Source: Escherichia coli
GTDB lineage: Bacteria; Pseudomonadota; Gammaproteobacteria; Enterobacterales; Enterobacteriaceae
DNA length: 64,000 nucleotides
NCBI RefSeq assembly: GCF_017348835.2
Contig: NZ_CP071375.1
Strand: one strand, 5' to 3'
Numbering within the stretch: the stretch's first letter is position 1; each line of letters starts with the position of its first letter. The position numbers and the translations under genes were made by a program. This document shows, in pieces, positions 45,562 through 49,049 of this stretch. The notes beneath the pieces are model-generated. The model ran no database searches and was not told the origin of the DNA. It worked only from the letters and a program-made list of their open reading frames with translations.

Positions 45562-46185
45562 TTAAATTTTATTTGCTTTAATCACCACCAGATGACGTTC
45601 GCCATCCAGGGCTGGAACCTGAAGTTTAACCACTGATTCGACCTGATATTCTTCGGGCAACAAAGCGATTTCATCTTCCGGCATTTGCCCTTTCAGCGCG
45701 TAGAAACGGCCTTGCTCACCAGGAAGATGGTGGCACCAGCTCACCATATCGTTCAGAGAGGCAAAAGCGCGGCTAATTACGCCATCAAACGGCGGCTCTG
45801 AAGGAAACTCTTCTACCCTGCTCTGTACTGGCTCAATATTCTCCAGTTTAAGCTCATGTTGCACCTGACGAAGGAAACGCACGCGTTTACCAAGGCTATC
45901 CAACAGAGTGAAATGGGCTTCAGGACGCACGATAGAGAGTGGAATGCCAGGCAGTCCAGGACCGGTGCCGACATCGATAAACCGTTCACCTTGCAGATAC
46001 GGTGCCACCACAATGCTATCGAGAATATGGCGTACCAGCATCTCATTAGGATCGCGGACCGAAGTCAGGTTGTACGCTTTGTTCCATTTATGCAGCATAT
46101 TCACGTAGGCAATAAGCTGGTTTTTCTGGTGATCGGTAAGCGAAATACCTGCGTCTTTCAGCAGTAAGGAGAGTTTATTGAGCAC
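45562..46185 (-). CDS. rsmG: 16S rRNA m7G527 methyltransferase (GidB)
   Basis: 207-aa ORF; SAM-binding motif [11 protein letters not shown]. Confidence 0.95.
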
Positions 46186-46248: not shown

Positions 46249-48138
46249 TTATGCGCTACGACGCAGCATACCCTGTTTTTTCAGCCACACCAGCAGAATG
46301 GAGATGGCCGCAGGCGTGACGCCAGAAATACGTGAAGCCTGGCCGATAGAGGCCGGTTTGTGATCGTTAAGTTTGGCGATCACTTCGTTAGAAAGACCGG
46401 ATACCTGGCGGTAATCCAGTGTCGCGGGTAGCAGGGTGTTCTCGTTACGCAGCTGCTTTTCGATCTCATCTTGCTGGCGCGCGATATAACCTTCGTATTT
46501 AACCTGAATCTCAACCTGTTCCGCCGCCTGTTCGTCTGTCAACGCAGGGGCAAACGGCGTCAGCGTGGTTAATTTTTCATAAGTCATTTCCGGACGACGC
46601 AGCAGATCTTCACCACTGGCTTCACGGGAAAGCGGCGCAGTCAGGTGAGCATTCACTTCGGCTGCAGCTTCCGCCGACGGGGGTACCCAGGTCGATTTCA
46701 GACGCTGACGCTCACGCTCGATATTCTCAAGTTTCTCGTTAAAGCGCGCCCAACGTTCGTCATCCACCAGGCCCAGTTCACGACCGATTTCAGTCAAACG
46801 CAGATCCGCATTATCTTCGCGCAGCATCAGACGATATTCTGCACGCGAGGTAAACATACGATACGGTTCTTTGGTTCCTAAAGTGCACAGGTCATCAACC
46901 AGTACGCCGAGATACGCCTGAGAACGCGCCGGAGCCCAACCTTCTTTGTCAGCAGACAGACGGGCAGCGTTAAGACCGGCCAGCAAACCTTGCGCAGCGG
47001 CTTCTTCGTAACCGGTAGTGCCGTTAATCTGACCAGCAAAGAACAGCCCCTGGATAAACTTGCTCTCCAGCGTCGGTTTCAGGTCGCGAGGATCGAAGAA
47101 GTCATACTCAATGGCATAACCCGGACGCACGATCTTCGCGTTTTCCATCCCCTGCATAGAGCGGACGATTTGCATCTGCACATCGAACGGCAGGCTGGTG
47201 GAGATACCGTTCGGATAAATTTCGTTAGAGGTCAGCCCTTCCGGTTCAAGGAAGATCTGATGCTGATTTCTGTCGGCGAAGCGCATGACTTTGTCTTCGA
47301 TCGACGGGCAGTAGCGTGGGCCGACACCTTCGATCACCCCTGCGTACATTGGGCTACGATCGAGGTTACTGCGGATCACATCATGGGTTTTCTCGTTGGT
47401 ATGAGTGATATAACACGGCACCTGCTGGGGATGCTGGGACGCATTGCCCATAAACGAGAATACCGGCATTGGGTTATCGCCATGCTGTTGCGCCAGTACG
47501 CTAAAGTCGATGGTTCGAGCATCAATACGCGGTGGTGTCCCGGTTTTCAGACGACCAACGCGCAGCGGCAGTTCACGCAAACGGCGAGAAAGCGGAATGG
47601 ACGGCGGATCACCAGCACGGCCACCGCTGTAATTATCCAGACCGATATGAATTTTACCGTCGAGGAACGTCCCAACGGTGAGCACGACGGCTTTGGCACG
47701 GAACTTCAGTCCCATTTGGGTAACAGCACCGACCACGCGATCGTTTTCGACAATAAGATCTTCAACCGCCTGCTGGAAGATCATCAGGTTCGGTTGGTTC
47801 TCCAGCGCCGTGCGTACCGCCTGACGGTAGAGCACACGATCCGCCTGAGCGCGGGTAGCGCGAACCGCCGGTCCTTTGCTTGCGTTTAGTATCCTAAACT
47901 GGATACCCGCCTGATCGATCGCTTTCGCCATCAGACCGCCGAGTGCATCCACTTCTTTTACCAGATGTCCCTTCCCAATACCGCCGATCGCCGGGTTGCA
48001 GCTCATCTGCCCCAGAGTGTCGATATTGTGTGTCAAAAGCAGAGTCTGTTGACCCATACGCGCCGCGGCCATCGCGGCCTCGGTGCCTGCATGACCCCCA
48101 CCAATGATGATGACGTCAAAAGGATCCGGATAAAACAT
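46249..48138 (-). CDS. mnmG: tRNA uridine 5-carboxymethylaminomethyl modification enzyme (GidA)
   Basis: 629-aa ORF; N-terminal FAD-binding motif [15 protein letters not shown]. Confidence 0.96.
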
Positions 48139-48226: not shown

Positions 48227-48497
48227 GGATCCTGGGTATTAAAAAGAAGATCTATTTATTTAGAGATCTCTTCTATTGTGATCTCTTATTAGGATCGCAC
48301 TGCCCTGTGGATAACAAGGATCCGGCTTTTAAGATCAACAACCTAGAAAGGATCATTAACTGTGAATGATCGGTGATCCTGGACCGTATAAGCTGGGATC
48401 AGAATGAGGGGTTATACACAACTCAAAAACTGAACAACAGTTGTTCTTTGGATAACTACCGGTTGATCCAAGCTTCCTGACAGAGTTATCCACAGTA
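48227..48497. other. oriC: Chromosomal replication origin oriC (AT-rich 13-mers, DnaA boxes R1 tgtggataa and R4 ttatccaca, dense GATC sites)
   Basis: Sequence ggatcctgggtattaaaaagaagatctatttatttagagatct…tgtggataacaaggatccgg…gttatccacagtagatcgc recognised as E. coli oriC; located between mnmG and mioC. Confidence 0.93.
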
Positions 48498-48516: not shown

Positions 48517-48960
48517 TTATTTGAGTAAATTAATCCACGATCCCAGCCATTCTTCTGCCGGATCTTCCGGAATGTCGTGATCAAGAATGTTGATCTTCAG
48601 TGTTTCGCCCGTCTGTTTTGCACCGGAATTTTTGAGTTCTGCCTCGAGTTTATCGATAGCCCCACAAAAGGTGTCATATTCACGACTACCAATACCGATT
48701 GCGCCAAAGCGGACCGCAGAAAGATCGGGCTTCTGTTCCTGCAATGCTTCATAGAAAGGAGAAAGGTTGTCCGGAATATCTCCGGCACCGTGGGTGGAGC
48801 TGATAACCAGCCAGATCCCCGAGGCAGATAAATCTTCCAACAGCGGACCGTGCAGCGTTTCGGTGGTAAAACCCGCCTCTTCCAGCTTTTCAGCCAGGTG
48901 TTCTGCTACATATTCGGCACCGCCGAGGGTGCTGCCGCTGATAAGAGTGATATCTGCCAT
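48517..48960 (-). CDS. mioC: Flavodoxin-like FMN protein MioC
   Basis: 147-aa ORF MADITLISGSTLGGAEYVAEHLAEKLEEAGF…. Confidence 0.95.
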   Translation of the reverse strand: MADITLISGSTLGGAEYVAEHLAEKLEEAGFTTETLHGPLLEDLSASGIWLVISSTHGAGDIPDNLSPFYEALQEQKPDLSAVRFGAIGIGSREYDTFCGAIDKLEAELKNSGAKQTGETLKINILDHDIPEDPAEEWLGSWINLLK

Positions 48961-49049
48961 AAACCGCCACCTTTATTAAGAGTGGCGTATTGTACGCTGT
49001 GAATGCGTTGGGATCTACCTGTGGAAAAGTATGGGATTAAAAAAGCCGA

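Follow-up and report, generated by a model that had tools for sequence, protein, structure and literature searches.

oriC and two variable accessory sites in the origin region of a PE164-like Escherichia coli chromosome

Two blocks of accessory DNA lie to the left of the replication origin in the window, the whole 64,000-nucleotide stretch of E. coli DNA that was analysed. Is this an unusual chromosomal context, and are the blocks connected in any way with the origin? The initial annotation of this DNA recognized the origin and both blocks, and judged the context to be slightly unusual. Our best explanation, which is very probably correct, is that the window contains a single canonical chromosomal oriC in the universal mnmG-oriC-mioC setting of a PE164-like strain, and that the leftward accessory blocks occupy two variable hotspots of long standing and have no mechanistic link to the origin.

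The region first delimited as oriC (48227..48497, plus strand) corresponds to classical positions 1-271, and it begins with the BamHI site GGATCC at 48227, which is classical position 1. The K-12 RefSeq oriC feature (3925744-3925975) maps inside it, to 48249-48480 of the window, and the classical 245-bp minimal origin maps to 48249-48493. The AT-cluster and the duplex-unwinding element (DUE) together occupy 48237..48292 on the plus strand. The AT-cluster, TATTAAAAAGAA (48237-48248, plus strand), is followed by the 13-mers L (GATCTATTTATTT, 48249-48261), M (GATCTCTTCTATT, 48265-48277) and R (GATCTCTTATTAG, 48280-48292), which show one, one and two mismatches, respectively, to the consensus GATCTnTTnTTTT; the M 13-mer bears a rare G-to-C change at 48270. 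Both ssDUE motifs for DnaA binding, TTGT (48276-48279) and TTATT (48286-48290), are intact by the definitions of PMC9198467. The DnaA-oligomerization region (48306..48494) contains the DnaA boxes R1 (48306-48314, classical position 80), R5M (48361-48369, position 135), R2 (48412-48420, position 186), R3 (48447-48455, position 221) and R4 (48486-48494, position 260), with names and sequences as established in the oriC literature (PMC5716108). Between R1 and R5M lies the IHF core, GATCAACAACCTA (48333-48345), with one purine-to-purine change relative to K-12. Another DnaA box, TTTTCCACA, was found upstream of mioC at 49020-49028. The mioC promoter is known for a DnaA box.

There were 12 copies of 5′-GATC in the 271 bp of oriC, where 1.34 were expected from the density in the window (4.95 per kb). 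The Poisson probability of such a cluster is about 2e-8, or about 5e-6 once corrected for window positions, and no other 271-bp stretch of the window is as dense in this sequence. The cumulative GC skew reached its minimum for the window in the 48-49 kb bin, at oriC, as is expected at an origin. Over the whole 64 kb, by contrast, neither the matches to the DnaA box (11, against 6.8 expected from shuffled sequences) nor the 13-mer-like matches (36, against 27.5 expected from shuffled sequences) were significantly in excess. The evidence for oriC is, therefore, the clustering of these elements at the K-12 spacing together with homology, and not the presence of the motifs alone. The initial annotation had called oriC unambiguous from its 13-mers, DnaA boxes and GATC density; all of these are present in the segment that it delimited, but counts of the 13-mers and DnaA boxes are not above chance in the window as a whole. 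Outside oriC, DnaA boxes with the perfect consensus TTATCCACA occur at 67-75 and 13732-13740, the second of them within the accessory block farther from the origin; their occurrence is compatible with chance.

Comparison with complete E. coli genomes, the check that had been proposed for this locus, placed the segment in the E. coli oriC region. A 501-bp sequence around oriC was matched in 5,424 of the 5,426 genomes, on chromosomes only and with mioC/mnmG annotation. The median was one copy of the oriC region per genome in this collection, and PE164 has one. This pig strain (E. coli PE164 from Nanjing, NZ_CP114128.1) is collinear with the window at 99.997% identity, the two mismatches in the 64 kb being at 5147 and 7409, and the gene annotation of the window used here was transferred from it. 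The gene to the left of oriC is mnmG (gidA; 46249..48138, minus strand) and that to the right is mioC (48517..48960, minus strand). In K-12 MG1655, oriC likewise lies between mnmG and mioC, and its elements, their position, orientation and spacing are the same as in the window. Within positions 1-271, the two differ at two sites, G to C at 48270 and G to A at 48345. Over 376 bp, three mismatches were counted against what we take to be the K-12 oriC sequence.

All the features of an enterobacterial-type oriC are present: 13-mers, DnaA boxes, an IHF site, a GATC cluster, the mnmG/mioC setting and a GC-skew switch. We found nothing against the assignment, by which origin function is predicted from the sequence. 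Under the established model of oriC, DnaA-ATP would oligomerize across the array of boxes from R1 to R4, IHF would introduce a bend between R1 and R5M, and the AT-rich 13-mers would unwind, while the dense GATC sites would permit sequestration by SeqA after firing. The identification of oriC anchors the window on the chromosome, around the origin of a porcine E. coli that resembles PE164.

The gene order of the left part of the window is tnaB', mdtL, yidZ, yieE, yieF, adeP, yieH, the first accessory block (island 1), a yieK pseudogene, yieL, bglHBFG, phoU, pstBACS and the second accessory block (island 2). The right part continues with glmS, glmU, atpC-I, rsmG, mnmG, oriC, mioC, asnC, asnA, viaA, ravA, kup, rbsDACBKR, mdtD and yieP. 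Within it, the segment 34343..59342, which carries glmS, glmU, atpCDGAHFEBI, rsmG, mnmG, oriC, mioC, asnC, asnA, viaA, ravA, kup and rbsDACB, forms a conserved origin-proximal core block with 99.2% identity to K-12 and a single gap. That the region flanking the origin is conserved, as had been claimed, was evident across the species, where this 25-kb block from glmS to rbsB formed one uninterrupted stretch in at least 4,958 of the 5,426 genomes. In one genome with low coverage of the block that we inspected, the numbering of the record begins at oriC. Extrapolating from this one case, we expect the same to account for many of the other low-coverage matches.

Both accessory blocks are borne out by the comparison: each is low in GC, is delimited by comparison with K-12 and is present in only part of the species. 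They had been placed about 15-40 kb from oriC, which agrees with the distances we measured, 33.8-41.4 kb for island 1 and 13.9-20.8 kb for island 2.

Island 1 is a block of 7.55 kb with 31% GC (6846..14395), named here for its EspY4/EspX-like genes, that takes the place of cbrB and most of cbrC at yieH-yieK. It contains an intact EspY4-like gene for 802 amino acids (6988-9396, minus strand), orthologous to espY4 of O157:H7; a pentapeptide-repeat (EspX-like) pseudogene with one internal stop (9705-10892, plus strand); and a large paralogous gene that is a pseudogene through one frameshift (11346-13868, minus strand). Two of the three genes are thus pseudogenes and the EspY4-like gene is the only intact one. 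RefSeq annotates island-1 product(s) as 'type III effector', and the O157 ortholog bears the name espY4. NCBIfam gave no match to the island-1 proteins, and the Pfam matches, to pentapeptide repeats, were all below threshold, so that the names of these putative effectors rest on the RefSeq annotation of orthologs. The block was present in 1,108 of the 5,426 genomes, at one place per genome and on the chromosome. The allele found in the window was matched at 99% identity or more in two genomes only, the next best match being about 93% identical.

Comparison with the EspY4 block of O157:H7 showed a common left junction at yieH and a common layout of three genes: espY4, a small gene on the opposite strand and a large paralog. 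The two blocks are about 87% identical overall and 76% identical in the second large gene. They also differ in what surrounds them, since the window retains bgl-yieL-yieK, whereas the O157:H7 block abuts phoU, with bglGFBH, yieL and yieK deleted; the pseudogene state of two of the three genes is a further feature of the window's copy. The yieH allele at the border of island 1 (6186-6851) is about 81% identical to that of K-12 but 97% identical to that of O157:H7. As the allele is linked to the island, this suggests that the yieH flank and island 1 may have been transferred together.

Internally, island 1 is a diverged tandem duplication of a module of about 4.4 kb. Two pairs of repeats with 73-79% identity were found (6817-6941 with 11190-11313, and 9508-9573 with 13976-14041), with the first copy reaching into the 3′ end of yieH. 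One large effector-like gene is present on the minus strand of each module, and the N-terminal regions of the two genes cross-match at about 70%. The adjoining yieK (14396-15143) is a pseudogene: it has a frameshift and, compared with K-12, lacks about 60 bp.

Island 2 is an lpf2 operon of the O-island 154 type (6.96 kb, 27379..34342, minus strand). It substitutes for 206 bp of the K-12 intergenic region between glmS and pstS, and 2 bp separate its right edge from the glmS stop codon. The location of lpf2 between glmS and pstS is that described for OI-154 (PMC6033998). The full layout of lpf2/OI-154 was found between these genes in the window: lpfA2 (33043-33645), the chaperone gene (32254-32940), the usher gene (29698-32232) and two genes for fimbrial proteins (28595-29686 and 27485-28567). 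An AT-rich upstream region of about 700 bp lies beyond lpfA2, within the island. Insertion site and gene order are the same as in O157:H7, with about 98% nucleotide identity. One difference is in the chaperone gene, which is annotated as intact (687 bp) in the window but as two short fragments in O157:H7 strain Z1813. The O157-type lpf2 was found in 354 of the 5,426 genomes, at one place per genome and on the chromosome, and an O113-type lpf in about 1,470 further genomes. Altogether, an lpf operon of one type or another is present in at least 1,830 genomes, and in those checked it occupies the same site.

These frequencies bear on whether two accessory blocks near oriC form an unusual context. 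A K-12-like state was found in only 3,161 of the 5,426 genomes (58%) for cbrBC and in only 3,063 (56%) for the glmS-pstS intergenic region. Both sites are species-wide variable hotspots, and the arrangement of origin and islands is ordinary. Accessory DNA close to oriC should accordingly not be seen as unusual: the first variable hotspot is only 14 kb away from the origin, and about 44% of genomes are unlike K-12 there. When one fragment per island was used as the query, 1,455 places were matched in 1,100 genomes. By the difference between these numbers, about 355 genomes, or some 6.5% of sequenced E. coli, have both islands; this indirect count may be off by a few, as a few genomes had three places. 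The union of carriers is about as large as the set of island-1 carriers, so the carriers of O157-type lpf2 are essentially nested within the latter. Across E. coli, the two islands near the origin show strong linkage, with about 354 lpf2 carriers within about 1,100 carriers of the EspY4 island.

The same layout is seen in O157:H7. In strain Z1813, whose record was compared from 1 to 37226, glmS follows oriC, and after it come lpf2, which occupies 14.9-21.0 kb from oriC, the pst genes and, at 26.3-33.1 kb, the EspY4 island. The absence of bgl, yieL and yieK brings the islands nearer to oriC. The islands of Z1813 are only about 5 kb apart, and both are within 33 kb of oriC. The window strain has this haplotype, with lpf2 and the EspY4 island close to oriC, in common with O157:H7.

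Gene flux in E. coli is limited to about 133 hotspots, whose positions do not differ between genomes; most of them lack integrases and tRNAs, and their contents have been proposed to spread by recombination in the flanks (Touchon et al. 2009, PMC2617782). The two sites in the window resemble these hotspots in occupying the same pair of core genes across genomes, in the lack of an integrase or tRNA, and in a diverged flanking allele. With about one hotspot per 38 kb, the probability of two within 41 kb is about 0.3 by our own arithmetic, which also argues against the view that the context is slightly unusual.

How did the islands come to be where they are? In our preferred reading, they would be passed on as a haplotype tied to the lineage, with probable transfer from one lineage to another by homologous recombination in flanking core genes and not by site-specific integration; this reading is drawn from one diverged flank allele and the literature. 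A different origin would be recent site-specific insertion, either of a Tn7-like element into attTn7, downstream of glmS, or of a pathogenicity island that carried an integrase. Such an insertion would fit the low GC of both islands and the closeness of island 2 to the glmS stop codon, which puts its edge in the attTn7 zone at the 3′ end of glmS. It is, however, extremely unlikely. No match to the Tn7 end was found even with up to three mismatches allowed; the PE164 annotation of the region has no tns, integrase, transposase or IS genes; the window has no tRNA gene; and neither island was found to have direct repeats at its boundaries. In addition, an identity of only 76-95% to the O157 copy implies that island 1 is old and diversified. 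Two more narrowly defined candidates were also set aside. One was a classical tRNA/integrase genomic island, of whose hallmarks (a tRNA, an integrase, boundary repeats and low GC) only low GC was present, and the other was a Tn7-like element at attTn7 as the source of the lpf2 block, which has no Tn7 end and only fimbrial genes annotated. Whatever their route of entry, might the lpf2 and effector islands have been kept near oriC by selection, for expression raised through gene dosage in fast growth? By Cooper-Helmstetter arithmetic with a C period of 40 min, the copy number of both islands is 0.98-0.99 of that of oriC, the maximum, and at a doubling time of 20 min it is about 4 times that of the terminus. 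The use of the same position by lpf-type operons in so many genomes would agree with such selection, as would the established enrichment of highly expressed genes near the origin (PMC2617782). Yet a copy number near the maximum is common to every gene in the window and is not evidence of selection, and only one of the three genes of island 1 is intact. With 31-40% GC, both islands are strongly rich in AT, and such DNA is typically silenced by H-NS rather than limited by dosage. Moreover, 56-58% of genomes carry neither alternative to the K-12 content at these sites, and hotspot density alone predicts about 1.1 hotspots per 41 kb. We consider selected proximity very unlikely, and infer that the near-maximal dosage of the islands in fast growth is a passive consequence common to all genes of the region.

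The two substitutions within oriC raise a comparable question about the origin itself, namely whether they form a natural allele that alters DUE unwinding, binding of DnaA to the ssDUE or of IHF, or the timing of initiation in a pig-associated lineage. Both are rare and both are inside functional elements. The change from G to C at 48270 is at position 6 of the M 13-mer, and the 61-bp DUE segment of the window is shared without mismatch by only 2 of 5,420 complete genomes, those of the pig isolates PE164 and F2_81. The segment is exactly as in K-12 in 5,081 of 5,421. The change from G to A at 48345 concerns the final base of the IHF core; the window's 61-mer for this site had exact matches in 14 of 5,412 genomes, whose sources are varied (mutton STEC, APEC, human and seawater). 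The lineage of PE164 and F2_81 has the two variants together, with 100% matches. Against an effect on initiation, 48270 is the 'n' of the 13-mer consensus, the new C is the base already present in the R 13-mer, and the site is outside the DnaA-ssDUE motifs TTGT and TTATT (PMC9198467). The DUE segment has some variant in about 6% of genomes, so the variant of the window is rare but not unique in kind, and the DUE is not strictly invariant. At 48345, the base is still a purine and agrees with the R at the matching position of WATCAANNNNTTR, which we take to be the IHF consensus. An allele with altered initiation is, on these grounds, very unlikely. We assume instead that 48270C and 48345A are neutral lineage markers, both being on degenerate positions of their consensus sequences. 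As a very rare natural variant of the DUE, the 48270 form might be used in work on oriC unwinding, as a control for neutral variation. The notion of the DUE as an invariant sequence was rejected in view of the variation in the 61-bp segment.

Low GC was also seen in parts of the window that are not islands. Two core stretches with 41-44% GC, 21001-23000 (bglG and the phoU-bglG intergenic region) and 45001-46000 (the rsmG-atpI intergenic region), are 98-99% identical to K-12.
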